The notes: generated by a model from the sequence alone, not told the origin. 32,000 bases of DNA from an uncultured bacterium (GCA_964565945.1 CAZMGY010000018.1:30001-62000); one strand, 5' to 3'; shown: positions 1 through 31,697, counted from the stretch's first letter. Numbers and translations are program-made.

Positions 1-790
1 AGCTAAGCTAACCATAGAGCTAGTTAAACGACCATGCGTAATAGTTGAGTTTTGATTATGTTTAGCTACATCTGCTGAATTGGCTGAGAAACTATCGACA
101 ATCTTCTTCTTTTGACGCCCTGTGTCATAATATTGAAAATATGTGCGATTACTGCTCAAGATCGTGTTATTTGCGTCGCGAACCACACGCAATTCTTCAA
201 TTTTATTATTGCCCCCATAGATATTACGCATTTCGGTAATATCTTTAAGATTAGCAACAGTTACTCCCGAGCGATTCAATTCCGACCAATTCATTAAATC
301 GCTATAGTGGTCATTGCCTTTAAAGTTTTTGTTCATCATATAACCATTCAAAAGAGTGCTACTGCCCGACATTTGGCTGCTGTAAGTGAAGGTTTTTTCG
401 TCGCTATGATCATCACTATAGGTTTTTAAACGTAAGGTTTCATTTAGACCCTTCCCTTCTTCATAAACCACTTCTTTAACAATTTTAGCATTAGCCGCTG
501 GAGTTACCGAAGCATAGCCTTTCCAGCTACGCTTAACATGATTGTAAGTACCATCTTGTGTTTCATTCAAGCTATCGTAAAGTAAATTGTCGACCAAATC
601 GTATTCCTTGTCGATTACTTCATCAAGAGTTGAATTTGTTAGTAATGGTGGGTTTTTTGTAACTGAAGTCATTACATTTTTGATCAACCTGTGATACGTA
701 TCGTAGATTTTAACAGATGATGAAATTTTGCGGTTCCATACAGAATCACCAGCATGAAGCACACGACCAGTTAATCCCATAAAATGCTTC
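1..790 (-). repeat. YD-type repeats resume and run off the window
   Basis: Lines 1-240 translated: TYFQYYDTGRQKKKIVDS...ITEMRNIYGGNNKIEELRVV. The quick read upstream includes IYDTYHRLIKNV and LLYDSLNETQDGTYNHV. Confidence 0.5.
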
Positions 791-3700
791 GCGTCATCAT
801 ACTCAGCTTCAAGGTAAATATCATCAATAACACTCTCACCCTTTTTGATGCCTACGCGATTATCCGAGCGCAAATAATAGCTGTACTCACCATTGTTGAT
901 AGTGTGGCCGTTAATGGTGATATCCCCTTCAGCACCTTGCTTGGCGCGAATTTCACCTGCAGTAAAAACAAATTCATGACCAGTTGCATAAACTTTACCG
1001 AATGTTTTAAGCTTACCTCCAACCATACGTTCGCTCACAGTGATGCCAACATTCTCGAGAACATTTCCCCCATAGATGCGAATCCCATATTGGCCAGAAG
1101 ATTTTTGATAATATTCGTAATATCCGCTATTGATAACAACTGGTGAACGAACTTGAATAGGTGTATCCCCATTTTCGTATTTCATAATAAGTCCATGGGT
1201 CGAACTTGCAGGGTTAAGTTCAAATTCGAAATCATATTCGATCCGACCTGTTGGACGTGGATAATCGTTCACTAAGGTTGAAGCTAAAGTGACATTAGGA
1301 ATGATCACACCATCTTTGTCCTTAAGTCCTAATGTGTTATCGTCACGGATATAGAATGTGCTCTTTAAGTCGTCAATTTTTTGAGGTGGATCACCGACAG
1401 TGCTTGGGAAATTGTCCGTACTTACAGGAGGAAGAATCACACCGCCTAAGGGGGTATCTTGAATGGTTACAGCCGTTTCAGCAATCTTAAAAGGTTCGAC
1501 ATCGTAGATACGCATATTGGCAGCGTTATCTTCGGTGAAACGAACGGCATCTTGCGTAGAATAATCAACGCTGGAAACACCATCAAACGTGATGGTTTGT
1601 TTACGGCTCAACGTTTCGGTATTTTCTTTAAGTTCCATTCCATAAGCATCGTAGCTAAAATCAGATGTGCTTTTGGTCATCAAGGCATTATTTTCGATCA
1701 CTTGGCGTTGTTTTTGCTTAACAGTTGTGTCACTCCCCCCTCCAAAACGCTCTAAAGATAGAATTTCTTTATGCAATAACTGCGTGTAATCTTTATCGTT
1801 GTATACGCTTTCGTACGATTTCTTTTCTTGGCGAAAGGCATCATATTCTTGTGTAACCTCTTTCCATGTCTCTGTTTGTCTTGGAGGATTGATTCTTCTG
1901 GTAATGGCATGCACTTTTTTCTCTTTCGATAGTAAATCTTCTGTGTAACTTTGATAATCGGTTACAGTGGCTATTTCGAATGAGTTTTGCGTCATACGTG
2001 CAACGGTACCATCATCGTTATAGGTCTTTGTCATTGAATGAAAAGGACGTTCCCTACCAGCAATCACTCGACCAGAGCGCGTTCTCACATGATTCTGTGA
2101 TGTTTCACGGCGATGGCTATCGTAAGTGTAGCTCACAACATCTTGTTCAAGCTCATCTCCAGTCACAGCGCTTATCGTGACTACTGCTTTATCAAGAAAG
2201 TCTTTATCGAAAGCAAATTCTCTAATAGTCTCACCCACCGCAAGACCTTTATTGTTGTAGTTGGTTTGGATGGTTTTAGTTCTAGGCTCTTCGCCATAGC
2301 CACGTGAAAGTGCTACGCTCTGAGTTGCGCGACCTAAAGCATTATAGCTTTGATTCCAAATCACACGATCAGATTTAAAATTGACTTGATCTCCTGGTAT
2401 ATTGGTGACCGTTGAGACTTTTTCGCGACTAACACGTCCTCGATTATCATAAGTGAAGTGAGTGATTTCCGTATGTGGTAAATTATCTACACTTGATCCC
2501 GTTTCCACGGTTATGTCTAACTTATCTCCGTAAACATTATAAGAATTATAGCTCATTTTGGTGACTTTTTGACCACGAGAAGGAAGCGTTTTTGTTACAA
2601 TATCTTGCATTTTACGTCCTGTGGTGTTATCGAAAGAGTTTTCTGTCTTTTCATGCAAATAATGCACCACATTATCTTGAGGTACATAGCTATAGGCATT
2701 TTTTTTCGAGATAAAGTGATTGTTAAGATCAAAGCGATAGGTATTTTTAGTAACAATTTTTTTACGAGGCAAATCGGCGGATCCTTCGGAGCCATTTCGA
2801 GGATAAACAAGTGCAGTTGTTTCATAGACGCGGCCAAATCGATCTTGAAGCATACTTTCTTTTTGTTTACTTAGGCGGAAACCAGTATCGGTGAAAGTCT
2901 CTGTGGTCCTCTCTTGAACCTGACCGTCATTATAATATTGATCATAGGTGATCCGTGTATGCTCCCAAAGATATTTATCGGCTTCATTACCCGTTTCGGT
3001 ATAATACGTTTTTTGATCTTTTTGGGTTGGATAACCTTTTTGACCAATCACCTGTTGCATATTATATGTTTTATCAACGATAAGAATATTTTGAATATTC
3101 TTGTTACGATCTCTTTCAATATTTTTGACCTGTGTTTCTAAATCATACGAATTATAAGTTCTGTAGCTCTCTGACATAGACGAAAGCACTCCGCTTTCCA
3201 AAGCACCATCCATACTGTTAAGCCCTGCATTTTCGTAACTATAAGTCACGCTACTTAAATTAACAGAACCATCTTCGGCATAAACCGAATATACCAGTTC
3301 AGCTTTGGACTCTGATCCAAGGCCTTTGAGTAAGCGAGAGGTTTTCCATGAATTGCCATGAACATCGAGATTTTGTTTCCACATAATATTTTGAAGAACA
3401 ACAGAAGAATTAGCAAAGGTTGATCTTTGGTTTTCGTAAATGCTGCGCCTAAGATGATCATAGTACTGTTCCATTTTGACGGTTGCTGTAACGCTACTTT
3501 GATCATCCCCATAATGCTCAGTCGTTTTTTCCAGAACATTATCAAAGTGATCGTATTCATCATAAGTAATTTTTCGTCTGGTGCGATAATGCTTAGTTGG
3601 TCCACTCAAATCCAAATCGGTGTACATGGCCTTACGGGTTCTTTTGTCAACGATTTCATGCGTTTTACGGCCTGTCACATCATCGTAAGTGTTGTAGATC

Positions 3701-6700
3701 TCGGTGATCGATTCGCGGGGCTGTCCCTCTTCGAGAAGATTGGTAACCGTTTCGGTCTTTTTATTGATAAAGTCGGCAAAAAAGACCGCATGTTTAAAAT
3801 GATTGATGCTGGTAATGCGTTCATAAGGTTGATCATTTAAATCAGATGCAGAACGAGGATAATTATCGCGTGTGACGATGTTTTGGCGTTCGAATGCGTC
3901 GAATAAAATGGTTTCTTTATATTTTTCAACACGGTTGTTAGGTGCAGGATTGTTGTTATAACGTTCGATGAATTTTTTCGAAAAGCGGTAATCATCATCG
4001 TAATCTAATCCTCGAGTGACGCGGGTTTCTTTCAAATGTCTGTTTGAGGCGATGTCATTAGTGTAATAGATCTCTTCACGATCGGTCAAAGCAATCCCTT
4101 GAGCACGCAAACGATTATTGCTGTAATCACGATACAAATCCTTAATCGTAATGATGGTTCTTGTACGTGATTTGAATGATTCTAAAGCCAATTTAATAGG
4201 AATGAATTTTAAATTTCCAGCGGAGTGTTCAATTGTTTCTGTGATGTAATAAATCATTTCAGCCAAGTTTTTAGCAGCAATCACTTCATCCAGTTGATCG
4301 CTTGACAAAGATACCGCTAATTGAGTTAAGCGTGTTTTGGCAGCAATAAAATTCATATTAGATCTAGATAAATCATATAAAGCCTCTTTAATCGCTAAAT
4401 CCTTTTCTATTATGCGTGCTTTAGTGGCCAACACAGCTTCGTAAAGTGGTCGATAATTGAACTTCTTTTCCGATAATTTACGTAATTCCGCGATCACCTC
4501 ATCAATGCTCGTATCTGCAGCAAGAAGGGCTTTAGTAAGGTCTGTGTTTTCAGTTAAACGTGCATTTTCAGCAATCAAAAAAGCTTTGATAGAACTCAGG
4601 TTATTTGCTGAAGCAAGCTGCTTAGATATATCCTCTAGCAGTGGTGCTGTTTCTGTCGTCCGATAGAATGTCTCTAGATTCCATGCATTGTATCCTAATT
4701 CTCCGTTGTCTTTGACATGCGTGACGTGCGTTTGACTCTTAACAAGATCTTTACTGATGCTAATGTCTGTGTAGTCGTTAAGGTTATCATTTACCGATGA
4801 AGGCGCTCCATACGTGGTGATGGAGGATTCTTTTTTAAGACCTGTTGCTTGATCATAGGTATTTTGTGTGTCACGAATGAGCTTTTCACTGCCACTGCCA
4901 GAAATTTCAGAAATGATATGTTTCACTTGACCACGGATGTCAAAATCCAGCGACCATTTTTTCTCGACAACAGTGTTGCTGCCAGCTGTCGATACAATGC
5001 CTTCATAAGTTTGACGATGGTCTTTGTTATAACGGTTGGTGAATGTACGAACAGCTGAACTCGATTGATCTTCGTCGGTTAAGGTTACACGCTTAGTTAA
5101 AATATTCTCAAATTCATCAAAACTTAGATACTCAGTTTTTTTACGGCTAAAAAAAGATTTGCTCTTATCGAGCGTCTTGCTCAAATCGTTCCGCTTATAA
5201 GTAGCTTGGGTTTCGGTTTGTTTGCGCAAGGTATTGTCATATGTGTAATCTGTCGTGATTTCACTTTTTTGCTGACCAGAATAAGTTCGAGCGGCTGCAA
5301 ATGTGCGATGGCGAGTTCTTTTTTGAGCTGAATCATCAAAAACAAAGGCGCGTTCCAAAGTCTGAGAGATAGTGAATTCTTCACTATTGTAAAGGTAGGT
5401 GTTTTCCTTAATCACATGACCCTCAGGGGCCTCTCCAGAAACACTATGTTTACCATATTCGTCAATCAAAACAATCGCTTCACGATCATAGATATCATAG
5501 AATATATGTTCGATATTTTTGGCCACATAGAATAGGTTGGCTCCGTCAGAAGCTGGAGCCCCATTATCGCCACGGCTAATGTAACGTTTAATATTACGAT
5601 CAATCACGCGGTTTTGATGATCATAAGAATTAAAGACTGTTTCTCGTGTTTTGTCGTAAATTTCAGTATCCGTAACTGGATCAAAGACAAATTCTTTAAT
5701 GGTTTCTTTACTCATATTGCCTGAAGGACCAAGATTTGGATTGCTTAAATCAAAAGTACGCTCTACATAATTGATTCCAAAAATAGTGGCACTTTCTTGA
5801 GCTCCACCAGTATATTTAACCAATTTGCGCTCACTCTCGCGATCCCATTGGTCGTAACTTATATTAGAAACAACTTCGCTGTTTTTAATATTGCCAGTTA
5901 TTTGAGCACGATTAATGGTCGTTGAGGCTAGATTAATAGGCAAACTGTTGACTTTGGCCGATGTTCCATAGTGCACAACAATTTCAGCACTCATAAGACC
6001 CCGGTTTTTGGCATCATTATAAGTACGATCAAGTAGCTTGAGTTTCCCTATCGATCCTCCACCAATTTTGTACTCTACGATTTGAGTTGCATTGCCACGA
6101 GGATCAAAAGCTTGTTTCCATTGGATACGTGTAGCTGATTTACCATCGCCAAAATCAGAAACTTTGGTTTCTTTGCTTACACGACCCTCGGCATCTCTTA
6201 AATACGTAATGATGTCAGTTTTGCTGCCTTTTTGTGTGGTTCGACTCATTTGACGGTTAACTTTATCAAAACTTAAGATTTTGGTTGTTTCTATAGTCTC
6301 AAAGAAAGTACCAGCATCGGTCAAGTCAAGGGCAACCCCGGGGATTTGAGGGATTTTTTTGGTTTGTTCGGTCTCGATTTCGCGTCCATGAGAATCATGA
6401 GTGTAATTGGTATTGATTTGCATGCCGTAGGCACCTTTATTATTCCCCTCATCATCTAGTGTATCTGACCATTCAAAATAATTTTCTTCTTTGGATTGTG
6501 GCATGTCATTTTGAACACCTAGATATTTCTGATTGCTATAACTGCGTTCAACATATCGAAAGCCAGCTTGATCGGTACCATTTTTATAGAAAACTTTTTG
6601 TTTGTCCGACACTTGGCGATCAAAAATATCGTATTTAATATCATAGATACGTTCTTTTCCTGTTCGCTTGTTATCCATTGTTAAGATTTCGTTTGTTTTG

Positions 6701-9700
6701 GCAACTGCTAAGCCTCTTTCGTTATAGGTATAGTCAGATTCAATACGCTTCGACTGGGCCACATAAGGTCGAGCCAAAATAGTGCTAATATCACTACTAC
6801 TTTTGTAAGCGCTGTAATCATTAGGTTGATCATTGATGTATTTGGTGTTAGTTTTTTTTTGAAGCATACCAGAGTTAAGTAAATCTGTGTCGAAAGCATA
6901 GTATTCCATGATATCTTGGTTTTTGCTCAAAACACCTTCTTTAAATTCGTATGTCGTACGCGAACGATTACGATCCAAGAAATCTTGCTCCACTTCGACA
7001 ATCTGCTGATTCGACCATTGTCCCGCCGTTTTGATTGTCCCAAAGCCAGTTGTTTTCATGACACGATCGTTTCTATCGATATAGCTTCGAAAAACAGCCC
7101 AGGCTTTATTAAAATCTTCTCGAGAAACATTTCCCTGAATACTTTGATAAGCTTCTTCTTTAATCATCCGTCTCAATGCATCTTTAAGGAAATCTTTGCG
7201 AGTCATGGTCCAGCTAATGATGCCATCGACATCCTGAATGATATTGTAGGATTTAACCTTGTTGTAAAGATTAGGAGCAATGGCATCTAAGGAGATTCTC
7301 GCGATACGTCCCTCTGTTTTATCGACATTCCAAATGGTTTTATGGCTAGCACTCACAGAACTCCATAGATTAATAATTTGGCTGGACAAAGCTTGATTAT
7401 CTGCCTTCCAGATCACATGATTTACCCCATCATTATCAATCAGATTGGCATCAATCCAAGGTTGAAGATCCAAGCCCGTAAAATCACTCCCTAAAAAGCG
7501 ATTGGTGTTGCGATAGACCTCTGTATCGGAACCATAAGTAACGATATTTTGAATTTTGCTACGATTGAAAGAATCAAAGGCTTTGATATGGGTCTCTTGA
7601 ACCGTTTTTTCCGTACCCAGGCCTTGTATGATATCTACTTTTCTTTGAACACGATCCATATGATCATACTCGTAAAAGTTTTCTGTTGTTCTCAGGGTCA
7701 CCATGGCCAGTGTTTCTCTATCGGTCGCTTTTTGAACGGATTTCTCGTAGAGTTTAAAATCATATTGATTGTAGGCCATCGTTTTATCTTCGACCGATAA
7801 AACATCAGACATATCATTGTACATACGTAGTTTTAAAGCCTTGACGCCCTCGTAAAGACCTTGATAACGGGGATTAAGATCTTTTTTGGCTTCTAAAGCC
7901 GTAATCATCGCATCGATAGTGGCTGCATTAACGGCGTCATTAAGATCGCCCTCTCCAGAATTGCCCTTATTAAGAGCCTCTTTAGCTTCAATAAAGTTTC
8001 TAGCCAATGATAAATCGAAAAATCCATCGTTCAATCGCTTGTTAGCAACGCCTAGATTTGCTTGGAAGGCCAATATAGCTTGATGAATAGCGTTATACTG
8101 ATTTTTGTCTGATTTTAAACTGGCCAAATGCGCCAATATTGCAGACATATTATCTATTGAAGTGATGGCATCGAGGTCTGCGTTATCCAAAACTTTATCA
8201 AAACGTTTGAGAATATCTTTGACATCAACAAAGTTTTCTGCCTGTGTGATTTTCTCAGCCACTTGCTGATAAGACAATTCGGGTGTTGCCAAAGGATCGT
8301 ATGTGTAGGTTCGTGTTTCGGTCACTTTGTCGAGATTATCAAAAGCGAGGTTCACAGTACGTGTATGACTGACCAATTGTCCCCTAGGTCCAGCTTGGTT
8401 AATATTGGTCTGATTAGCTAAGCTATCGCCAGGATTAGGGCGATAAGTTTTTTGAATTTCCTGAACTTGACGGTTGGCAAAAAAGGTATTGTCATACTGT
8501 TTTTCTGTGACTTGATATTTCCATGCCCCCTGGTAATCTTGGATCTTATCTTTGCGAACTTTCTCACGGTTAAAGACATCGTACAAGATGTGTGTAATTT
8601 TGGTTTGAGCTGTTCTTAAACGTGACCCTTCTGTTAATGGATAAGGCTCCATGGCTTGACGAGACGTTCTTTTCAGTTTAGGTTGATTATGTAAGTTATA
8701 AGCTAGATATTCTGTTCTTTCCCGTTCTTTCATAATCCATCTTTGAAAGCTTTGATCCCAACCATATTGATCAACTTCTTGTGTTTTAAAACGATCAAGA
8801 TTGTCATAGGTATTCGTGCTGACACGGCGATTATGTTTGTCCCAAAATCCTCTTACTTCGTTATAATGAAAAACATCAGTTGTTTCGATATAAACTCGGT
8901 CTTTAGGATTATCTCCATGTAAATATTGATTTTTTTGAATCAAACGACGACGCTCTTGGGACATTTGCAACAAATCATGACTATTATTCTTTTCGTATTC
9001 AATCGTTGTCACTTGAGTTGTTCGACCTAATTGATCAAACTGATAACGTTTGCGTGTTTTGCTGCGATCAACAACTAAACCAAGAACTTCGGAAATGGCT
9101 TGTCCTTTCCATTGTGTTTCGGTGTTAGCCATAGCGGCATCCTGAGCTGTCATTTTAGAAATAATGTTCTCTTTAACTACGTCAAAGATACTTTTTCCAA
9201 TATTATTGATAAGTGTGTTGGCCGGAATACCAAAGAAGCCTCTTAAGATGTTGGCCAAAGTTGAAGCGACAATCATTTTGAAGGATTGACCCTCAATGAA
9301 TCCGCGCACCCAGTTGTAAAAACCTGTTTTGAAAGCTTCCAACATATGAGACAATCCAAATTTTTTCTCACGCTGAGTTAACTTGCCTTGATGAGAGCGC
9401 ATAATAACATCGTAAAGCTTGGAATTTATATCCCCTTCGACAGCCACCTGATTTTGTTTTAAAACACGTAAACGACGCAAAACTTCTTTGCTCATATCAC
9501 TGGCATTGATGGTATTTTTACCTGATATTCTCTTGGCGCCATCCAATGTAAGAACACGGTCAAAATCTTCTTTGCGATATTGGGTGGTGACCAATGCATG
9601 CTCGACAGCTTTACCCATAGAATCATAGATGTAATCGTTGAATTCCTCTAGGGCCGTACGGTTTCCGTACATATCAAATTTTGAATTAAGCTTATGAGTC

Positions 9701-12700
9701 ACTTGTTCAAAAAGATTGTATTTAAAATCAAATTCCGAAGACGCCTCAACCAAGAATTTACCAGTCAATTCTCGTCCTTCCAAATCAAGCATCGCAGTCC
9801 CATCTTCATAGGCGCGTACACGGTAATTATAGATATATTGTTCACGACCTTTGAGACGGCCTGTTAGTTCATCATAGATGTTAGCACTCTCCTCTTCTTT
9901 GGTTAAACCTTGAATCGTATATCGTTTTTGCGCAACATCATAAAGAAAATTGGTTCCTGTTTGTGTCATTTTGTTGGACTGGCGTCCATCGGTATAATAG
10001 GTGTAATGCGTAGCTAAGGCACGTCGAGTAGCCATATTATTCGTATCGGGATACTCCCATCGACGATCACTTAAAAGACGACCATCTTCACGATACACAC
10101 GGTCAAAAGTTGTGGTTTGTTTTTTCGATAAATAATCAATTTCGTGACTATGACTAAGGCGCAGGTTATCGTTGTATCCCATAATGCGCTTGGTATTCTC
10201 GCTTTGAGAAAAGCCATTTAAGAGAGCGTCCTGATCGATCACGAGCGTATCACCATCCAGTCTTTTAGGCAACTTACCATTGAGAAGATTTGTGCTACGA
10301 TTTTTTTGATATTCTTGTTTGGTAACATGAATCGGCATACCACGGTAATCGAATTTCTCAAAATGTTGCACAGATAACCTTGTATTTCCTTTTAAATGAA
10401 TGGCAGAAAAAAACCCTTCCATAGCGGCCACACGTTTATGAGAATTAGAAATCCTGGCATAATCTAAGCTGGCAATGTTAAGTTCGTAAGGACCAATAAT
10501 CGAAACGAGGGCTTGGAATTTGTTTGCAATTAGCACCAAAGCCGTATTGGCATTTTTAATAGCGTCTTCAGGCACGGTTAAGGCCTCTTCATTGATCATT
10601 TTAGCTAAAACATTGGCTTCCTCCGTCGATAAAACGCCATTTTTGTTACGATCGGATAAGGCTAAACGAAATTCGGCTAACACATCGACCACTTGAGGTT
10701 GTTCTTTGACAATTCGTTGCATAATCTTAATTTTGTCGACATCAAGACTTTGTTGAACCGGAATACCAGTAGGATTGCTTGCCGACACAGGATTCAATTT
10801 ATTAATGATTAGCTCTAAAGTGATTTCGGGGCGAATGACAAAGCCTTGAGCAGCGCGATCTCTAAGGTTATAAATGTAATTACCAAACAAGCTATCCAAA
10901 AAGGCATTTTTGTCAGCGTTGCTCAAACCATCAAACGTCATCATCCATGCGCTAAAAGCCGCTTTCACACCCTGAACTTCAGGATAATCTTGACCAGTGA
11001 GAATACCACGAATATTTTGAAGATCTTGAGCTGTGGCATTATTAACTGCTTTAAGGGTTCTTTGCAGGTCTTTTAAACGAACAGCAAAGCGATCTAACTG
11101 CCCTTGCTTAGGATTGGTGTAATCAGAGCTAATCAAAAAGTACTTCTCAAGGATTTTTCGTGCTTTCTGAACTTTCCAGGTAACCACTTGCATATCGTCA
11201 TGAGAAGTTTTACCTAAATCTGTTCCTTGCGCTAAAAACTTTGTTTTATAAATATCTAAATAAGCACCCTCGTTCATAACCATTACGTATTCATTAACTT
11301 TTCTTTTAAAGCGATAGTCTAGGCTGTTTTTGCTGTAACTCAATGTTTTCCATAGAGCATCTTCGACATCATCCGCAAAGTCGAGCTTGGCTTTAAATTC
11401 TGCTTCAGTATCATCTAAAGCATCTGCACTCCAGGTGGTGTAGGGCAAATCCATATCATAAAAATCAATCAAACCAGCTGGAAGCAAGTGCTTAAGTGGA
11501 CTTACACCCACAGGTAATTCATTAGAGCCACTGTTCAAATTAAGACGAATTTCTTTAACACTATTATCGTAAAAAAATTCTTTGACTGTGGTTTCTGTCA
11601 ACGCGTAGTTGTTTTCTCCAAATCGATACTTGGATGTCGTTGCGGAGTCCCAAGTGACCTGACCATCATTGTCATATGTCCGTTGACTTTTGATTTGCGT
11701 TTCATCCTTGTAATACGCACCACCTTCTAAAGGCACATCCTTTAACTGACCCCATTTGTCATATTTTCTAGATAATGATGTCGACGAAGTAACAAGGCCG
11801 GTGTTGTCACCACCAGTTTGAGTTGCCTGGTCATAGTCTTCGTAATAAAAGGCATAGTAGAGCACCTTACCAGTTGTTCCTGTCACTTGACCCGCTTCGT
11901 TCTTAATAGCTTCTAGAAAAATACCATCCAATACGGTTCCATCTGCACGTTTGAGCCCAATGGTTTGATCTGGACGAATAAAATAACTGACTTGACCATC
12001 CTTAATCATATATTTGCCAATCTGTGCTGGGGGTTCTATCTCTGTCTTTGCTAAAATAGAACCCCCAGCCACACTAAAAGCGTCATCTAAGTGCAATACA
12101 ATGGGATTGCTGGCTTCATCTTTAAGAGTCAATTGATCAACATCAAACCGATCTTCACGAACCTCTAGAACATTGGAACCAGTGTTATCATAACGGTAGT
12201 TACGCAAAATATTATGGACTTTATTTTTTTTAGCATAATCAGTTTTTTCAACCTTAATAAACTTCTTGCCATAAGAATTAGTTCCTTTTTCCATGCTAGC
12301 CAACAAATTACCATTGGCATCATAGGCCCTTTCTTGAATAACATAGTTCTTATAAAAAATATTCATTTGACTCGATGTGCGACTTAAACCTAGAGCATTG
12401 CTATGCTCGGGATCACTTGAAAATTCTGGAATCGTAAAATCGAGCTTGTCTTTGTCGATAGCAAACCACATCACATTATCGGTGCGACTACCGTTATCCA
12501 CACGGTCTTCACGTTTTTTAATAAGGCGTCCATTTTGATCATATCCCATATTCCATGTATATTTGAGAGATACATTCCCTTTAGAATCAAAATTCTTGGT
12601 GTTTTCAGCAATTTTTTGTCCCAAACGGTTGTATTCGATACCTGAATAATGGGTTTGGCTAACCGCATCACCCTTATCAACAAAGTCATTGAAAGACACT

Positions 12701-18700: not shown

Positions 18701-21700
18701 GTTGGTAAATCAGACAGATTCGGACTTGTCGATGGATCGGCATCTTCGATGCTCACCATCGTGGCAGAACGGTCTAAATCCACAAGTGTAAGATTATTCA
18801 CTAAATTGCTTAAAAAAGATTTGTACTCGCCATCGGGAAGATCTGTGTAATTAACGTGTGCCCTTGTAAGATTGAAGTTATCCCTGTCAGGATCTTCCCC
18901 ATCCAAGTAAGCTCGTAAGAAGAGTTTCGCATGATTGATTAAATTAGAGGCATTCATATGAATATCTTGAACCCAAACCTCTTCCAAGTCAGTAATATTG
19001 TCATCGGGAATCCCAGAGCGAACCTCTTGTGAAATAATTTTGACAATGTCTTGCGCTTCTCGACGAACTAAGGCGGCTTGGACTTGTTTTTTGGCCTCAC
19101 CATAGCTCAAATTTGGTACTGAATCATAGTCAATGGTTCCTTCGAAAGCTTGTGCTGCATTGTATTGATCGACCGCAAATCCACGTAAAAGTGTATCGCG
19201 AATATTAAAATTTGGTGTGAAATAGTTGATTTGAATATTGTAATCATTAACGGGTAGTCCTCCATCAATAAATGCATTAAACTCTGTATTTCCTACGCTT
19301 TCATAGGCACGCGTTTGATAGTTGACTGTTTCGAACAAGCTGTCATTGAACAAGTTTGTCGTTCTCTCATAGCTTCGCGCATAATCACCTGCAACCAGTG
19401 TGTCTAGATCGGTAGGAAAAAGATTTTGATTGCTAGATCTCAACGTCGCAGTCACATTTTGTGTTGGATCGTTAAAGACCCTAATAGCCGCATCTTTGAA
19501 AGATTGTAAAAACACATTGGTTGCAGCCATCGCGTCAGCCTTAACCCCAGCATCCATGCCTTCGAACATATTGAAAACATCATGCAAATTAGCTCCTGCA
19601 GCAATTCGGTTGAAGGAGTGATCGCGCAATCTATCTGTTTGGGTGCGAATAGCGCTCATTTGCTCCACTTGAGAATCCATGTTGGCATGCATATCAGCAT
19701 ATTTTTTAAAAAAAGTGGCAATCATTTGTTCATAGTAACCAGCCAACACCTCCATGCGTTTAATGCCATACGAATACACATCATGCTTAATACGATAGGC
19801 AACATAATCCGCTGTCGGAGGAGAAGCACTCACTGCAGACAAAGCAGATAAAGCCGCTGTCATTTCTGTGGACGCATTTTGAAGAGTTGTGTTCGTTGCG
19901 TTGGTTTTATCGTAATCATTAGCATTCAATGTTGCAAACACATCTGGTGTAAAATATTCATAAACAGCGTTAGATGGAGTGGATAAATCTAGGTTTTTAA
20001 CTTTTTTAATGGTCGGATTAGCCCATTTTTGCAATTGAATGATCAACGCTGTGTTTTGAGAACGCGCAGAAAATGTTACACCAGCCGCCTTATTACGCAA
20101 TAAATCCATCTCTTCGTCTAACAAACGATCAATATCTGCAAAAAGACTCCCCATAGGCTCAAGCAGTTCGTACTTCATCATTTGCACCTTATGCTCTTCG
20201 ACCAAACGGCTTAAACCTGTTTGCTGATTGATAATGTCTTGAATTTGATCATTACTGATTTGATTAATCCGGCTTATGTATTGATTATTTTCGCTTTGAA
20301 CTGTGTGTAACGCATCGATATGTTGCTGCAATTCATATTGACGCTCAGCATAACGGTTTCTTTTGGTTTTTTCAGCATGATACTTACTCATAATGATTTG
20401 TAAGTTTTCACGCATATTATTAGATAAAGATGCCGAAATGGTGCGTTCAAAATGAAAGGCTTTATAGTAATGGATACCCTTAACTTCCTCCGTCGCAGTG
20501 ACCATATCGCAGATGACTTTGGATCCCTGAAGCAATTTGTATTTTTGGACAGCCGAAAAGGAATCTATCAAACCACCTACTCGCCAAAAATTATTCCATT
20601 CGGCTTGCGTCATCGACGTTGGCACCTCAAATTGAGCCTTCCAATCATTGCGCAAACCAATAAATGTCTGCGAATCCGTCAATTGACCATGTTCCGCGAG
20701 ACCAAAATATTCTTCCCAACGCTCTCTTTCTCCACTGTTAGCTGAGTCTTTATCGGGCAATAAAAAGGTATTGAGAGACACTTCTGATTTAGGTGCCAGC
20801 TGAAAGCTGCCTTGGACTGGAATTTGAACACGTGCAGCTCGGTCTCTTAATTCGGGTAAAGCAACACTGTGTGTTTGATCCCATAGATTAAGGATTTTGG
20901 TTTTGTCACTAACCGAATAGGCAAACTCTAGCAACTTAGATGCCAAAATGGTTCGTGTGGCTATATTCCACACAATATGGGTATCCTTATTCGGATCAAT
21001 TTTGATTAGGTTGTGGACAATCATTTGCTCGATCGTTGCATTCGATAACAAATACGCGCTGCCTAACTCTATACGTGTCATTTCACGAGCTGATTTTCCA
21101 AGAAGGATCAATTGTTCCTCGGATGTTAACGTATTGTAACCAAACGAAGGACTTAACCAAAAAGCCCTCCACTTGCTTTGATAACTAACCTCTTCTCCGT
21201 CTTCATGCACAACAAATTCGGCTTCAGTATCCCATCCTTCGGGAGCCTCAAATAAGCCTTCGAGTTCGTTACCAAACAGTTTTTCAGTGATTTCAATCTT
21301 GGAAACAATTGCATTGATACGGTCGTTGATAAGAACTTTTTCTTCGAAGAGTTCGGCAATTCGCTCATCATCAACAGGCGATTCTAAGGTATTAAGCGTT
21401 AGATTGAGATTGGCCAAGGCACGACGTTCACTGGCTAGGTTTTCTTCCAAGCTCTTCTTATAGTTATTAATAACATTTTTCATAAGAGAGTTGGAAGGAA
21501 TCGCAGATTTGTCAGGATTTTCTTCATTCTTGGCCTGAACGATGTTGTAAATCACTTCGCGCATCACATTGCGTGTTTCTTCGCTTAATTCACCCGATTC
21601 TTCCAATAATTCGGAAATAATACGATACTCAGAACCCGAAGGAATCTCGATTTTCGTTTTTGTGATTACTTTTTCCTTTTGGTTATTCTTAAGTACCGCA

Positions 21701-24700
21701 AAAATAACTGCTTTTTGATCAGCTCTTTCATCAAGGGTAAATTCAACGGCTTCTTTCATTTGCAAAAATTTAGTTAACAATAAACCCTGAGCTAACAAAT
21801 AACCTTTGGCCTCCAATTCATCCCAAAGCTGTTGTGAATTAAGTCCTAAAGCATCTAAGTCATTCAAACCAATCACATCATTTTTTTTATTTTTCAAAAA
21901 GTTATAAATTTCTTCAGTATGCTCCGAGAAAGGTGCTTTAAGGTTAAGATCTTGATGGCGCAACAAACGGTTCATTTTATCGGTGTAAACCCCAACATTT
22001 TTGATGTAATTTTTTGCCACTAAATCAGCCCACATGGCTTTTTTCTCAGCATTTGTCCCCGTAACGGTCGAAAAGTCCTCCATCGAGATCAAGCCCCGAG
22101 ACATCGCCAACACATCCGATTTTTTAAAGCGATTCATCATCGAAGACGAGGCCACAGAAAATTTGATTGTTTCTTCTCCCAGAACTACAGAGCCCCCACT
22201 CAACACAAGTGCTTGCTGTTCTTCGTTAAGCTGGCTGAAACCATAGTGATCACTATTCCAAAAAGCATCCCACTTGGAACGATAATCCACGTCGGCGCCA
22301 TCTTCATTCACGGTATAAGACGTTTCCCAACCTGTTGGAATGCGGAAAAATGTTCCTAACTCTTCACTTGTGCTACCAATTTTGTAATCTTCTTGATCAT
22401 ACTCGAGTTCTTGGCCAAAGCTGTTATAAGCGATGTTATAACGAACCGTAATCTCTTTCATATTAGGAGATGCGTTTTTAACCCGAGATTCCTGATACGT
22501 CAAAAGCTTACCAAACTTATTGTACTGAATGTTTGTCCGTTCAGAGTGTGTCACGTCATCCACATCAAAGGCAGTTTCGTAATCAACAACAAAGTCATCT
22601 TGGATCGCATTGATCATGCCCGTGGTAAAATCTTTATCATCAATAAGACTGTCTTGATTGAGGTCGAAGCGAGCCCATAACGCAGGATTCACATTAGCTA
22701 GAAACTCATAAAGCATTAATTTCTTAATCAAGCTCAAGTCATAATCAAATTCATTCAACGTTCTAGCTCCAAATAGTCTGCGGAAACGAACTTCTCCCAA
22801 AGCTTGCTTCATATCTTTAACCGAAATAATTTCTTTGTCTGGAAAGTATCTTCCGTACTCCACGGCGCCTAATGCCTCAATAGCTTGCGAGCGTGTGACT
22901 TCTGTGGCAAATCCAAACAAACGGGTGTAATGGTTGTAGCCAAGATCTTGAGTTACTTTTTGAGCAAGCTTAACAAAATCATCAACCGAAAAGGTCGAAG
23001 CCGTTTCAAGCTTTTCGATGATCGATAACAGATAATTTTTTAGGGATTGGCCAGTTAAAGAATACTTTTGAATCGTTTGACCTTGTTTTTGTGATTTTTC
23101 AATGTATTGTTTTTCGCGACCAAAAACATCATAATAAATTCGTTTTTTCTCTTTGATGGTGATCGAATCTGGCGATGATGTGCTCACACTGCTCTCTTTA
23201 GTGTATCTTTCCTGGCCTAGTTTATTATAGATCGTGTCGTTACGATGGACAATATCAGTCACATCAATCCGGGCTTCGCTCAATACCGACTTGGATTTGA
23301 TCTCGACCACAGCATCTCCCTTCTCATCTTTTAAACCAGTGCGAATGGTTGTATTATCATCAGCTGTAATGGCCTTTAAAAGGGCATTCAAATCTTTTAT
23401 ATCTGATTCCTTAATGGTCAAAAGACCATCTTTCTCCAAAAAGAAATGTTGCTCTGGTATCAACTGGGTTTTGACATCTTGAGTTGGAGTTTTGTAACGC
23501 ATAACTTGAGCTTGTCCAATACGACGCGAAGCAATTGAACGTTTTTTAAGTAGTCCCGTTGTGTCATAGTGCATATCTCTCACATAATCGATGGTCAATA
23601 AATCAGGCTTACTGAGATTTTTTTTGGTTTCGGTATAACCGATAAGCTGAGACAAATCATTATAGGTGGCTCCAATCCGTGTATTAAATTCTCGTGTGTC
23701 AATCACCTCTTGCAACTGAATACCTTTGCGAGAGGCTAAAACACCCCCCGCAGCAAGAGAATCCACAAAACTGACGCGTGCCTGTTGAGAATTACTCCAT
23801 AGCTGAACAACAAAATCAATGTTTTTCTCGCTGTAATCAAACTGATTCAGTTTAGAGCGCAATTCGCTTTCTGATGTCACATTCCAATGAAAAAGGTCCT
23901 TATTGCTGGGATCGCTAACAAGAACCTGTTGTTCAACCGAATTGAGTGATGCTAGCAAGCTTGCATCCTCAAATGAAGCTCTTCCAATTTGACTTCCTAA
24001 CAATTCAGTGAAGCCTGTGGCCTGAGCATGAGGCATTTGATCAAGCTCATTCTTGGTATAATAACGTAAGTTTCCAGTAGCTTTAGCCACAACAGACTTA
24101 ACCTGATCACCATCGACATAAAGCGCTTGATCTTGAGCGCTCATTTCGTTCCACTCCTCTTGAGTCATATAGAAAGATGTAAGACCTGTATGGTCATCAT
24201 TAATATCTACTTTGTGAAGCAATTGCAACAGAGAAACTTTTTGGGGTGTACCATAGGCCTTTTTCTTCTCAAAATCCAAATTCGCCCACTCTGACTCCGA
24301 GAAAAAATCAAAAGTTCCTGGAGAATCGTTTTTTTCACTCATCACCAAAACGCTGCCATTTTGCAAAATTCGTTGAAACGATGAATCTTGATCATTGACT
24401 TTTTCAAGTTCATCTCTTAAGGAATTATAAAAGATTTCTGTAACTTGATAGCGATCAAAATAAGTCGTTATATCTAAAGAATTTCTAGCATAAGGCAAAG
24501 CTGAACCTTCAACGCGAATAAGCTGATGAGCCGTCCCTGCAATAGTAACACTTTGCCCAAACAAAAGCCGTTCTTTATCTTCAGATGCTAAACCATCAAA
24601 CACACCACCTTTGATCCAAAAGGTACTCCAGTTACCTTGAACCCTCGATGCGCGCATATCGAAGGCCGCCTGCCACGCACTACGATCGCGATCAAAGCCT

Positions 24701-27700
24701 GTTTTCAAATCGTTAACAGCGACTTGATTATAGTTGGCAAAACCAAAAAAGCGCTTTGTTTGCCCATGCTTTGTTTTCGATTCCAAAAATCCTTTTTCTT
24801 GGCCCTCTCCTGTGTAAAAAATCGATTTACGCTCGACATGTGTTTCAACCCCTTGGTTATCTGTTACATCTTCGACATAGCTTTCAACTTGAACATTGGA
24901 GTTATAAGTCGTTTTTCGACGTAAAATTGTGGTCGTATCGTTGATCTCGATGCTATCATTCACATAACCTAAAGTGAACGCTCCCAAATCATAATCGTCA
25001 AAAAAAGAGCCTATGTTCCTCACATAGGTGTTCAGCAAGTCTCCATCATTGGGGAAAAAAGTTTCGTTTTGAGCCACGGTGGCAATATTATCTGCATTAT
25101 CTGCTAAAGCAGCCAATACAGCAACTCTTTGCGTTCCGCTCAAATTTGTATCAATCAGATTTTTGAACCAGCTTAAGGCCTGTGAACGGATATCCACAGC
25201 TTCGTCATGATAAATTTTAGCAATATATTCCTGAGTTAACAGGGCTTTGAGCCATGCATTATTTTCAACAATTTCCCTATTAACGCGTTCAACAGTGCTG
25301 ACACCCTTTTTTTGGACTGTTTGACGATACGAATTCTGGCGGTCAAATTTTTCATATGTGATATCTGTCATTACTGTGATTGTCGTTAAATCGGGCTGAG
25401 CTGTTGAGCGTTTAATTTCATCATAGGCATTAATATTGCCCGTTTCGTTGTATTGAGTATTGGTGCGCAATAATCCTTCTTGAATGTCTTGCAACACCTT
25501 ATTATCCAACTGATCATAGGCCAATCGATGCGTAACATCGAGATACTCAAACGTTTGACCAAGACGATTGTACTCAATAGCACTTCTCGAAACACGTTCT
25601 GATTTTTCAAGGCTCTGAGTTTGCCCTTTAATCGTTTGTGAGCCTTTAACATTTTCGAATTGGGTGTAACCCGTCATTTGCTCAAATTGATTATAAGTGA
25701 TATGGCTACGTGTTTTGCTGGTTTCAGAGCTACCTTTAGCTGCTATTTTGCTACTTTCACGATAAGCGACTTCTTGATTCAAATCATTACGTACAATCGA
25801 AAAGCGGGATGTGCTGTTAATGTTGTTCAGTACATTTGTTTGTTGATAGCTCACCCCTGCGCTAGTCAATAAGTCCAAATCATTTTGATCGATCACCTCA
25901 TCTTTGTTTAAATCAAAATGTTTATCATAAGCGCGACGTTGCTCAATCATGTCTTTGATCATCATTTCGGATTCATAATAGTTGAAGTTCATATCAGTCA
26001 GAGAGCTTCCCAGCTCAACGTCACGTTCATCATAAGAAAACTTCAAACCATCAAGATAAACACCCTCCCAGGTTTTTAGCTTAACACTTGTTCCCAAAGC
26101 AACACCATCAGAAGTATCTACTTTTAAATTCGCCAAATTTTTAGGATCAAAATTAAACGTTGGATTTGGCACATAAACTTTCTTAATAGCTTCCCAGACA
26201 CGATCTTTGTCACTACGCCGCATCGAGCCAAGAGCCTCATAAAATGAGTCGCGATCATTGCCCAACTTGGTCACGGTCACTTGCGTAGGGCTCTCTTGAT
26301 CTTCAACAACCAATCCTTGATCCAACAACACTTGCAAGCGATTGCCTAAAAGATCTTTACTGATACGTCCGTCATTATTGATTGCGCGAATAATCTGATT
26401 CATGTCGGTCAATTCCTCACGAGACGTGCTTGAATCAGAGGTCAGAGTATAAACCTGGGTTACATTTGATTCTTCATCCCAAATTCTATTGTCGGTGTAC
26501 TTACGTTCCCAACGATTAATGGTATCTACAGCACCTGGAACACTGTGTAAATTGGTATCTTCAACAAAGCTTTTCAGACGAAATTGATCATCGTATTTCA
26601 TATCATAGCGAAGGGTTCGGCTTTTTTTATCAGGGCTGTCCGAGCGTTGAGTTGTGTCTTCGTAAGACAAAATAAGACCCGTCGAAACTTGCTGAATTTT
26701 AGCATGGGCATCAATGTAATCAACCTTTTTGTAAGTAATATTTTTTCTTTCGCTGATTTGACGCGAACGCCGCTCACCGCCTAAAACATTTAAGCTAAAA
26801 ACCATATTTTCCGTGATTGAACCAGGAAGAACATTTTGTGCACCCAAATTTCCATAAGGACCGTTAACACCAAAGAAGAACTCTAGGATTAAATCATTGA
26901 CGGCTTGTTGGCTCACAGCATCTGGCTCGACCGCCTCACGTTCTTTAAGCGCACGATAAATCTTTTGAGCCAGTTTTTGACGTGGAGCATTAATATCATC
27001 TTTAGCCATTAGGAAATCACTGCTCTTAAATACGTCTTGCCCTGATTTGATCTGATTAATCATGGTAACAGTTTCATTTTGATCGAAGTTTTTTGTTAAA
27101 TGTTCTCCCAAAAAGATTTTATGCGTTAAGGCAATTTTAGCATTGACTGGAATCGTATCGATCTTTACGTCGCGACCATTAAGGGAACCAATGGCTACTC
27201 CGTCCACGTCGGGTGTTTGTGATACCTGAGAATTCTCTCCAAAAAAGTAATCAAGAATTTTATTATTTACAGAATGAACAGTGATTTCACCATTGTTGCG
27301 GGGATCCCCATCTTCGAGATTTACCAAATCGTTGTAAATGTCACTAGCCAAAACCTTAAGCGCGTGATCTTTATCCTTAAGATAATAAAAATCATATTGT
27401 CCAAAGACCTTAGTACTATTAAGCAATGATACAGCTAATTGTTGCAGAGCAGCACCTTCATAAGCTACATATTCATCCGCTTCCCCCATTTTTTCTGTGA
27501 TTTCTTCGTAAGACAACATCCTCCCATCGGCATCATAGTTTCCAGACCAATCGACAATCGTATCAATCGCTTGCTGACCATTGTTATCATATTTGCGGGT
27601 GATTTTATGCTCATTGATCCGTAAGCTACGAACTTTTTCGTATTCGGTTTCAATCACAGTGATTTTCTTAGGAAAGCTTACATCAATTCCCTTAGAATGA

Positions 27701-30700
27701 TTGTCATGTTCCATATCAAACTCAGCTTCTTTGGAGAAGATCTTGTTGCCGCGAGAATTATATTGGCCTGACCAGCGAAAAGTTTTGTTCTCTTTAAGCT
27801 CACCTGTCGATTTATAAGTAATGTCCCCTCGATAAAATTCTTTTTCCTTGCGATCTTTTTTCTTTGCACCTTCAAGATAGGTGTAAGCACCTTGCCACTT
27901 TTCATAACGTTCACCATTCACCGTGTTCATACCAGTCTCATAAGAACCTAGGGTTTTTCCATCACTGTTATAAGGGTATTTTGTCACAATTAAATCATCA
28001 CGACTCAAACCACTAGGTCGAAGAATAGCTAAATTAACTGTGCTGAGATCAAAATCTTTGGTGATTAAAATGGCTTGATTATTACTATCTAGAATTGGCT
28101 TAATAATACCCTCACGATTTTTGTATTCTAGGATGTTGGAAGCATTCCATTTGATGTCGACAAATTCCTTGCCTTCGTTCTTTTTGTAGGATTTATAGCT
28201 TAATTCTAGGTCATTATTGTCGTAAGAAATGTCACGACGTTTCTCAACAGAGGTTCCTTGAATTTGACCAGAAATCAATTCACGATCATATTCCAATGAA
28301 CGATCAGCTGCATCATACTTCATATTCTTCATTCTCGTGATGTTCAATACCCCATCAGTCACGGTGCGTTCGGTGTAAGATTCTGTTCTTTTCAAAGTAT
28401 CGTATTTCATATCAAAACGATGCGTCTGGGTGCTGTGGCCATTAGAGATGTTTTTCGAGAAATATTCTTTGCGATTGTCATCATGATCATAATAAATTGC
28501 CTGCATTTCCATGTTGTACTCAGATCCTTCAGCATTCACGCCCTCTTCTTGATAGGCATATAGGCGCTTTTTTTTGTCATAAACCATGTTTGTTTTTTTG
28601 CTATAGGTTTCATTCACAATCGGATGCTCAATTCCTTTGGTCTCTTTTATTTTAACGATGCTTCCAGTCAAACGTTGGTCAGCGTTATAACCAAGATTTG
28701 ACGTTTCTGTCATAGATTCGCTGTATGATGCAACTTTACTCTTGTCTTTCACATCACGGTGGGTTACTTTGCGATAATCGGTGTAATTAAATAACTGCCC
28801 TTTAACCAAACGCACATCGGACTCTAAGTGACCCTCTTTAATCAAGTTTTCGTTACTATAAGAATCTAGCTCACTCGCATCGCGGTAAGATTCAGAAACC
28901 ATGTCTTTGATCAATTCACCGCGCTGACCTTCACCTTTAATAATCCAACTTTTACTCTGTTCCGTTTCGGTGTTGTACTTAAGCAAGTTAAAATCCCTTT
29001 CCAATTCACCATAAACAGAACCTCCCCAAGTTTGATAGCTAACAGATTCGACACCCACTTTATGTTTTTCCAAGTCTTTGGCCGTTAAAACATAACCCAA
29101 ATCATTCAAAGCATCGAAATAAAGGTCACTTTTGTTCGTCAAAAAATCGTTATAATCGGCTAAATCACTTGCAATATCGTAGGATGGCAACTGCTGATGA
29201 AGTCCCTGCGATGTCCAGTAAACAAGCAACTCTTCAGGACTTTGCACGATCGAGTTCCAAATATCTTCCGTAACCTTAAGTTCGGCTTTTTGATAAAGAC
29301 GACTTTTATACTCCATAAATTTTTCATTTAAAAATCTTTCGATATCTACATTAAAATAATCACGAATGAATTTATTCGACATTTTGCTCATATTGGCATT
29401 GCCATTGCGCACAATGCTCAAGAGATCGACATCGGGATAACTCTTATCCAACGACGTTTCTAAGCCTGAAAAACGAAGTAAATTATTCCACAACTCATCT
29501 TTAACGATAGTGATTTCGGAATCATCGCCTTGCAAATCATTTTGCAAAATAAGATGGTCATTCAATACCTTGGTTAACCCTGCCTTAAAATTAGTTAAGG
29601 CTTTTATCATTAACTGTTTTTCTTCACGATAGTTGTCGTAACGCAAAGCTGTCATTTTATCTGTGATTGTTTGGCTATAGTTACGAAATGTCTCGGCATC
29701 ATCACCAGATAAGGCTGGCCACTGGGATGTCTCACCAAACACAAACTCGATAATTTCGTTAGCATCTTCGAAATTGACATTCGGTGCATCGGCATCGATC
29801 CGTTGACTTTCAATCACGGGCTTGGCCAATTCTTGTAAAGCAAGGTCAACGTACTCCATATACGAGTTATCTCCTTTATCTCTGTTATTGATAAAAAGAC
29901 CTGTATTTTTAAAAATACGCGTTAAAATATCAATGTCGGAGGCACTTAAAACACCTTTGATTTCAAGATAGGATAGCTTTGAATCCACATCCTTAAGGCT
30001 ATTCCATACTTTATCTGTCTTGGATCGAATAAGACTTAAAAGATTGTCTTGCGGATTGTAGAACTTATTATGATGCTTGATTGTTTTTTTGTTGTACGAA
30101 CGAATATTATCGCGATAATCGTAAGTAGCATCATAATAAATCGATTCTTCATCCGTTAGCTCATTATTCTCATCAATTTCATACTTATACACTTTATATT
30201 TGGTTATATTCCCATTAACATACTCTGTTTCGAAGCTTGCTGTCTCCAAGATGCGGAATAATCCTCGACGATAAACAGCAAATTCAGGAGCTACTTTAAA
30301 ATAACTATAACCCTCTAAAGATTTAAATTTTTCTGTGATAACTCCAGCTTCTGTGAGATAATTGCGTTTGATCAAATCATTCCAAATATCTTTGTTTTTG
30401 TAAGGGATGTGAGATAAATCAATAACGTCTTGACGATTATGTGGATCCCAAAGTCCCCATTTTTCGACTTTGGTGGCTTCTTGATTGCTATATGTTGTTT
30501 TCCTGTAAGACAATACATCACCCTTTTGAGTGTAAGCAATTTGCTTGTCATAACTCATCGCGGCGTCCCAAATTATCAAGGTTTCCTCGCCATCACTAGC
30601 TTTCGTATGTTCACGGTAAGACACAAGCTTGTCATTGGCTTCCGTTTTACTTTCAAAAAAGTAATTCGCTTCCCAGGTAATATCTTCAACTTTACCTGAA

Positions 30701-31686: not shown

Positions 31687-31692
31687 AGCCCT

Positions 31693-31697
31693 CTCCT
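31693..31697 (-). promoter_or_regulatory. Shine-Dalgarno (AGGAG) of the giant gene
   Basis: Minus strand reads TTTAGGAGAGGGCTGTG: AGGAG, a 6-nt spacer, then the GTG start at 31686. Confidence 0.75.

Follow-up and report, generated by a model that had tools for sequence, protein, structure and literature searches.

To our knowledge, the YD/RHS shells characterised to date are all single, closed containers of ~1,000 residues each. Teneurin forms one closed shell of fixed size, and both Tc and teneurin shells tolerate inserted domains; the canonical YD-repeat period is ~21 aa. WapA of Bacillus subtilis (~2,300 aa) is picked up by the standard YD models; its C-terminal end carries an Rhs core and a tRNase toxin, and an immunity gene accompanies it. 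A conserved C-terminal sealing region is common to all characterised Rhs shells (PMC8765631). An open form of the fold has been predicted in giant proteins of the Omnitrophota, in which RHS-like antiparallel beta-helices form open tubules of ~1,500 aa (West-Roberts et al. 2023, bioRxiv 10.1101/2023.11.21.568195).

Here we analyse a stretch of 32,000 nucleotides of DNA (the window) from an uncultured bacterium. On balance, it probably encodes an exported giant protein of a divergent branch of the YD/RHS superfamily, in which the YD sheets serve as open ribbons or spacers and not as toxin capsules. A single uninterrupted frame on the minus strand, open from position 31695 to position 1, fills nearly the whole window. 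From the GTG at 31686 the ORF comprises 10,562 codons and runs past the left window edge, so that its C-terminus lies outside the window; the sequence immediately 5' of this GTG is AGGAGAGGGCT. The G+C content is 36–41% throughout, and the window contains neither a DNA-level tandem repeat nor a complete ORF of at least 150 aa. The N-terminus of the giant protein looks like a Sec signal and export is predicted from its sequence; the same signal-like layout is found in the related proteins L004, L007, P0001, P0003, P0006, P0008, P0009, and P0012. The only cysteine among the 10,562 residues (window 1-31686) lies inside this signal-like N-terminus.

Orthologs show the ORF to be real and conserved. 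Contig L004 (ENA ERZ25071824) encodes an ortholog collinear with aa 4-2895 at 35–62% identity, and this collinearity from aa 4 supports the GTG start. A more distant ortholog on ctg147967l (ENA ERZ25070786; L006, L007, and L008), with 23–36% identity in the best segments, is collinear at aa 18-343, 1027-1250, 3004-3173, 5759-6617, 7452-7773, and 7971-8055. It consists of about ten overlapping, frameshifted ORFs with a combined span of ~35.8 kb, or ~11,940 aa. Judged from this ortholog, the full-length protein probably comprises ~12,000 aa, so the window protein probably lacks its last 1,000–1,400 residues. The collinear orthologs indicate that the gene is real and, together with the absence of a DNA tandem repeat, exclude an assembly or repeat artefact. 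In both orthologs (L004; L006/L007/L008) frameshifts break the giant gene into overlapping ORFs. Word-indexed searches returned two and one relatives of the window protein, and a further search of this kind retrieved an ortholog fragment (P0151). No relative was found in the genome collection, an exact search with a 44-mer gave no match in the viral and metagenome collections, no protein matched aa 9201-10562 when the metagenome collection was scanned, and tblastn of the best array against plasmids returned nothing.

The motif Y[DN]xxG[RQ] occurs 25 times in the protein (0.44 in shuffles) and a looser YD-like pattern 49 times (6.4 in shuffles). Self-trained HMMs converge on xRxxxxY[ND]xxG[QR]xxxYxE, and the C-terminal part of the protein has a degenerate variant, [YF]Dxx[DGN]R, for which an HMM of its own was trained. 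The two unit HMMs find 58 distinct hairpin units, compared with 0–0.1 in shuffles, at a modal spacing of 30–34 aa; these fall into 20 clusters, 16 of which contain at least two units. The original prediction, made from the sequence before this analysis, had proposed at least ten arrays and more YD-type hairpins than one shell needs, and both statements hold. Its estimate that YD-type sequence makes up roughly half of the residues was too high: the motif-bearing clusters cover 2,422 aa, or 23% of the protein, and a coverage of ~50% is reached only by a crude composition index read off a table by eye. A Chou-Fasman profile did not separate arrays from inserts. The longest regular run spans eight hairpins in 259 aa.

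Each unit of 30–34 aa would form an antiparallel beta-hairpin, with a first strand leading to Y-[D/N], a turn of the form x-x-G-[Q/R], and a return strand leading to Y-x-E, often with a PD-containing loop. In the N-terminal two thirds of the protein, 2–8 motif-bearing units at a time may stack as ribbons, while in the last third the hairpins would be arranged as super-repeats of ~370 aa. The ribbons are predicted to be separated by modules of several kinds: helical, Trp-rich, EF-hand-like, and small beta.

Table. Features of the giant ORF and its surroundings, with residue numbers of the encoded protein and positions in the window.
Feature	Residues (aa)	Window position	Strand	Evidence
Giant ORF, 10,562 codons	1-10,562	1..31686	-	open frame, start and translation, collinear orthologs
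AGGAGA ribosome-binding site, 5 nt upstream of GTG 31686		31692..31697	-	read from sequence
Signal-peptide-like N-terminus (KKYVR, hydrophobic core, AFA|QQ)	1-37	31576..31686	-	read from sequence
YD-like array, 5 motif-bearing hairpins, W-type (xxWxxxxYDxxxNxxxY)	201-409	30460..31086	-	unit HMMs
YD-like array, 5 units	985-1175	28162..28734	-	unit HMMs
YD-like array, 2 units	1295-1407	27466..27804	-	unit HMMs
EF-hand-like loop	1925	25879-25914		
YD-like array, 5 units	1951-2134	25285..25836	-	unit HMMs
YD-like array, 2 units	2244-2313	24748..24957	-	unit HMMs
Trp-rich insert pair, 31% identity	2313-2382 and 3660-3726	24541-24750 and 20509-20709		
YD-like array, 2 units	2805-2875	23062..23274	-	unit HMMs
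EF-hand-like loop	3008	22630-22665		
YD-like array, 2 units	3038-3109	22360..22575	-	unit HMMs
Trp-rich insert pair, 38% identity	3109-3184 and 3474-3547	22135-22362 and 21046-21267		
Central region without YD motifs, ~2,100 aa	3110-5231	15994..22359	-	
YD-like array, 4 units	5232-5424	15415..15993	-	unit HMMs
YD-like array, 4 units	5864-6000	13687..14097	-	unit HMMs; AlphaFold2 hairpins
Longest regular YD-like array, 8 units	6145-6403	12478..13254	-	unit HMMs; AlphaFold2 hairpin sheet
Beta-rich-looking module pair	6537-6610 and 10239-10311	11857-12078 and 754-972		
EF-hand-like loop	7012	10618-10653		
Degenerate (C-type) YD-like array, 4 units	7535-7802	8281..9084	-	C-terminal-variant HMM
Helical module, copy 1, paralogous to aa 8980-9122	7754-7907	7966..8427	-	
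C-terminal arrays, four super-repeat copies of ~350-390 aa, sparse [YF]Dxx[DGN]R	8400-10050	1537..6489	-	
Helical module, copy 2, ~150 aa, interrupts C-terminal arrays	8980-9122	4321..4749	-	

Non-repeat stretches separate the arrays, and several of these are themselves duplicated. Within the central region lie duplicated Trp-rich inserts, a stretch resembling a coiled coil, and a long part rich in Ala, Asn, Asp, and Thr; neither a family match nor a homolog was found for this region. The Trp-rich inserts, which occur as duplicates of ~70–75 aa between arrays, follow the pattern W...WxAFW...LSxEEQxxLLxG and have no family match; a similar insert (W..LSxEQQxxLL.G) interrupts the arrays of homolog P0001. 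Three EF-hand/dockerin-like loops of the DxNxDxxIDxxD type are present, against 0.13 expected in shuffles, and a weak Dockerin_1 match occurs in one family member. A beta-rich-looking module of ~74 aa is found in two copies 3,700 aa apart (36% identity, E = 1.6e-10), has no Pfam support, and may be what the original prediction termed LamG-like. Of the folded inserts proposed there, the non-repeat stretches and the three EF-hand-like loops are thus present, but neither LamG nor any other Pfam family was detected.

The super-repeat copies in the C-terminal arrays lie at offsets of 352, 386, and 517, with a fifth, partial copy near aa 7600-7710, and their period could equal one structural turn or one domain. 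By hhalign, the super-repeat profile aligns with the confirmed arrays at a probability of 80.6% (E = 1.3e-5). The second copy of the helical module is modelled as helices by AlphaFold2, with pLDDT block means of 55–71. The combination of a helical domain and a long array is duplicated at an offset of ~1,220–1,250 aa, with arrays of ~770 and 870 aa. An AlphaFold2 model of aa 8990-10070 built with paralog rows had a mean pLDDT of 29.8 and was discarded. A hydrophobic, amphipathic stretch, FKMIVASTLANILRGFFGIPANTLINNIGKSIF (aa 7455-7500, window 9187-9324), opens aa 7452-7773, which is among the few C-terminal segments alignable with the distant ortholog (23% identity).

The standard domain models do not recognise these repeats. 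Eleven tiles spanning all 10,562 aa were searched with Pfam and NCBIfam, including a run at E <= 10. Neither RHS_repeat (PF05593) nor YD_repeat_2x (TIGR01643) matched any of the 11 tiles at E <= 0.01 (best E = 0.57), whereas the control, E. coli RhsA, matched RHS_repeat at 1.5e-68 and TIGR01643 at 5.3e-41, as well as Rhs_assc_core, RHS, and DUF6531 (3.7e-18). Relaxing the Pfam/NCBIfam threshold to E <= 10 over all tiles gave nothing meaningful, nor did a phmmer search of PDB sequences with the whole protein, and the PDB contained no match to the array profile up to E = 10. By hhalign, the confirmed arrays align with E. coli RhsA at a probability of 40%, which is weak, and the C-terminal super-repeats at 1%. 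The original prediction had named few or no RHS/YD repeat hits as the outcome that would count against it, and formally this is the outcome obtained.

The predicted fold points the other way. An AlphaFold2 model of aa 5860-6500, built from an alignment of eight homologous array fragments, is an all-antiparallel hairpin sheet in which Y-D closes the first strand and G-R lies in the turn; pLDDT block means are mostly 80–93 for aa 6150-6390 and mostly 76–88 for aa 5905-6000. The DSSP string of this model contains no regularly spaced helices. The best ten Foldseek matches of the model in the PDB are all Rhs, Tse15, TcB-TcC, YenBC, or teneurin shells (E 2.7e-10 to 4.7e-4, probability 0.99–1.00), and the eleventh has E = 0.05. 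Because TM-scores are low (0.12–0.25, with rmsd 21–33 A), the likeness to Rhs/Tc/teneurin shells is a local one. The model therefore predicts a hairpin-sheet fold with Rhs-like local structure in aa 5905-6000 and 6150-6390 only.

A total of 653 cluster representatives match the array profile; 84 do so at E <= 1e-30, and lengths of 4,000–8,000 aa are common in the set. Named family members are annotated as "hypothetical protein, partial" and come from Elusimicrobiota, Omnitrophota, and unclassified MAGs. Pfam RHS_repeat is present in 5 of the 72 family members scanned. In P0149, the RHS_repeat match (1.5e-20) covers residues 912-949, overlapping the stretch best matched by the profile (724-946), and contains classical YxYDxxGRL units; the C-terminal part of P0020 also carries RHS_repeat. 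Based on the AlphaFold2 sheet, the best ten Foldseek matches, and these intermediate RHS_repeat proteins, we conclude that the repeats are divergent YD-type repeats that lie outside current domain models, with weak direct membership at the sequence level. The YD-type nature claimed in the original prediction is accordingly upheld by the fold (aa 5860-6500) and by the intermediates but not by the standard HMMs.

Elements that seal or accompany known Rhs shells were sought along the whole window protein, and no RHS, Rhs core (TIGR03696/PF03527), DUF6531, plug, PAAR, propeller, or toxin family was found in aa 1-10,562. The original prediction had named the downstream sequence as a place to look for an Rhs core and a toxin. 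In the ~11,940-aa ortholog the C-terminus is complete, and its last 1,543 aa contain no Rhs core, plug, PAAR, propeller, or recognised toxin family. This C-terminus has TM helices and Lys-rich helices, and its long tail, rich in Pro, Thr, and Val, includes a direct repeat; the end looks like a coiled coil. A "DPLG" in the tail was considered as an Rhs cleavage site; it lies in a Pro-rich, disordered-looking stretch and, since it lacks the RYYDPxxGRF context, it is not read as one. Downstream of this ortholog lies a gene for a 238-aa Gly-rich, Gly-zipper-like membrane protein; a protein of >1,500 aa with an N-terminal TM segment is also encoded downstream. Other family members end in variable C-terminal modules that follow hydrophobic Gly/Ala-rich stretches. 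The C-terminus of P0009 contains a RES domain (E = 2.8e-11), and P0002, P0006, and P0008 contain GxSxG-like motifs (DHSQG, GHSQDG, and GHSGG), found by eye and supported by no family model. In the last 671 aa of P0002 there is no Pfam family, and a small ORF whose N-terminus resembles a signal or TM segment comes after it.

These observations allow several readings. The repeats could be unrelated to YD/RHS and represent an independently evolved Tyr/Gly beta-hairpin mimic in a generic giant adhesin. This would account for 10,562 aa without an RHS_repeat or TIGR01643 match where RhsA scores so strongly, for an array profile that matches no PDB Rhs or teneurin sequence, for the low hhalign probabilities against RhsA, and for a unit of 30–34 aa in place of the canonical ~21 aa. 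However, we regard it as very unlikely, as the best ten Foldseek matches are exclusively Rhs/Tc/teneurin shells and the first match outside this group is weaker than the last of them by about two orders of magnitude, YD/N and G occupy matching strand-end and turn positions, and RHS_repeat occurs in 5 of 72 family members and in the C-terminal part of P0020, its best match in P0149 overlapping that of the profile. If the repeats are YD-type, several cocoons could be arranged in series, with each helical domain and array of 770–870 aa closing and neighbouring helical domains serving as plug or cargo. The duplication of such a module at an offset of ~1,220–1,250 aa is consistent with this arrangement, as are the size of the long arrays, which is about that of solved shells (single Rhs/BC target chains in Foldseek have 1,020–1,457 aa), and the local Rhs-like structure of the confirmed arrays. 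Yet the tiles contain no sealing Rhs core or plug family, although a seal is common to characterised Rhs shells (PMC8765631), the C-terminal array model is unusable (pLDDT 29.8), equivalent super-repeats of ~370 aa fit an open periodic structure at least as well, and the arrays of the N-terminal two thirds, at <=259 aa, are too short; serial cocoons are hence a distinctly unlikely reading.

A further reading concerns function and is compatible with an open fibre: the YD-like part may act as the carrier of a polymorphic-toxin-like delivery system, with a C-terminal membrane-inserting segment and a variable effector beyond the window and an immunity gene downstream. Family members do end in variable modules after the repeats, including the RES domain of P0009; in P0002, P0006, and P0008 the hydrophobic Gly/Ala-rich stretches precede the GxSxG-like motifs, and P0002 is followed by its small ORF. 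The C-terminal piece of the ortholog likewise has TM helices and is followed by the Gly-rich membrane protein. But the complete C-terminus of that ortholog contains no recognised toxin or Rhs core, the lipase-like motifs lack family-model support, and the window protein's own C-terminus is outside the window, so that we consider a delivery function fairly unlikely.

The preferred reading, an open modular fibre, takes the window to encode the first 10,562 residues of a putative Sec-exported giant protein. It would belong to a branch without Pfam/NCBIfam coverage that consists mainly of giant "hypothetical proteins" of uncultured bacteria, including Omnitrophota and Elusimicrobiota MAGs. The YD sheets would serve as spacers or as ribbons that curve without closing, within an elongated, modular fibre that is secreted or displayed on the surface. 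Other family members suggest by analogy that a hydrophobic segment able to insert into membranes, perhaps accompanied by an effector, may be present at the C-terminal end beyond the window. We infer openness from the shortness of the confirmed arrays and the absence of sealing elements, and the duplication of modules and super-repeats as equivalent units points the same way. With at most eight motif-bearing hairpins and 259 aa, each confirmed array is far too short to close a shell of ~1,000 aa. Arrays that are not contiguous could nevertheless join to build a large shell, or several, from which the inserts loop out, and the two C-terminal arrays (~770 and ~870 aa), whose model has a pLDDT of 29.8, are shell-sized. 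A wider proposal, that the YD/RHS sheets of the giant exported family form open ribbons or tubules, or serial chambers, interleaved with helical modules, is offered tentatively; if true, uncultured bacteria would put the YD fold to a structurally distinct use in surface machines of megadalton size. The observation that prompted this work is thus confirmed in part, and its interpretation is partly supported.

With the Rhs/YD shells (E. coli RhsA, P. protegens RhsA, Tse15, TcB-TcC, and YenBC) the giant protein shares the antiparallel beta-hairpin sheet, the Y-D/N strand end, and the G-R/Q turn, and Rhs/Tc/teneurin shells are the best and only significant Foldseek matches of its model. Intermediate Pfam RHS_repeat proteins link its family to Rhs shells, and some members share variable C-terminal modules, including the RES toxin domain, with Rhs toxins. 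In contrast to the Rhs shells, the giant protein has no PF05593 or TIGR01643 match, its unit of 30–34 aa has strands of 10–16 residues, and its confirmed arrays comprise 2–8 motif-bearing hairpins interrupted by other domains. Within the window it also lacks an Rhs core/aspartyl autoprotease, plug, PAAR, VgrG-linked, or beta-propeller element, and it is about ten times longer and bears a putative Sec-type signal. Whereas characterised shells are single containers, the YD-type hairpins of the giant family are far more numerous, the arrays are interrupted, and sealing domains are not detectable.

Teneurin, like the window protein as predicted here, is a very large extracellular protein with a YD-type sheet, and teneurin-2 and teneurin-3 are among the top Foldseek matches; however, no FN-plug, NHL, or Tox-GHH family was found in the window protein. 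WapA shares Sec export (predicted for the window protein), YD-type repeats, and the absence of T6SS elements, but the window protein yielded no match to standard YD models and no Rhs core, and neither a tRNase toxin nor an immunity gene was found within the window. The Omnitrophota giants (West-Roberts et al. 2023) are likewise >10,000 aa long, come from uncultured bacteria, and contain unannotated, predicted antiparallel beta regions likened to RHS. The present family includes Omnitrophota and Elusimicrobiota giants, and is likened to the published proteins by description. Their tubules are continuous over ~1,500 aa with regularly spaced exterior helices, and the proteins have many TM regions and SecA DEAD domains; the arrays of the window protein, in contrast, are short and interrupted, and no SecA or DEAD family was found in its Pfam/NCBIfam tiles. 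Given the open tubules of West-Roberts et al. 2023, an open YD-like architecture is not without precedent, which for this form weakens the original suggestion that the architecture is undescribed.

At least 653 cluster representatives are missed by the standard domain models, and a dedicated HMM would annotate large unannotated parts of giants in Omnitrophota, Elusimicrobiota, and related MAGs. Whether open fibres or tubules can be built from the YD fold would become clear from structures of the arrays. As for the genomic surroundings, an aminotransferase gene adjoining an ortholog has only ~50% identity to many Proteobacteria and other phyla. An RND efflux operon (an OEP, a membrane-fusion protein, and two ACR_tran genes) lies immediately upstream of the gene for homolog P0001 (L001 1-9683), which suggests a diderm host for that relative.
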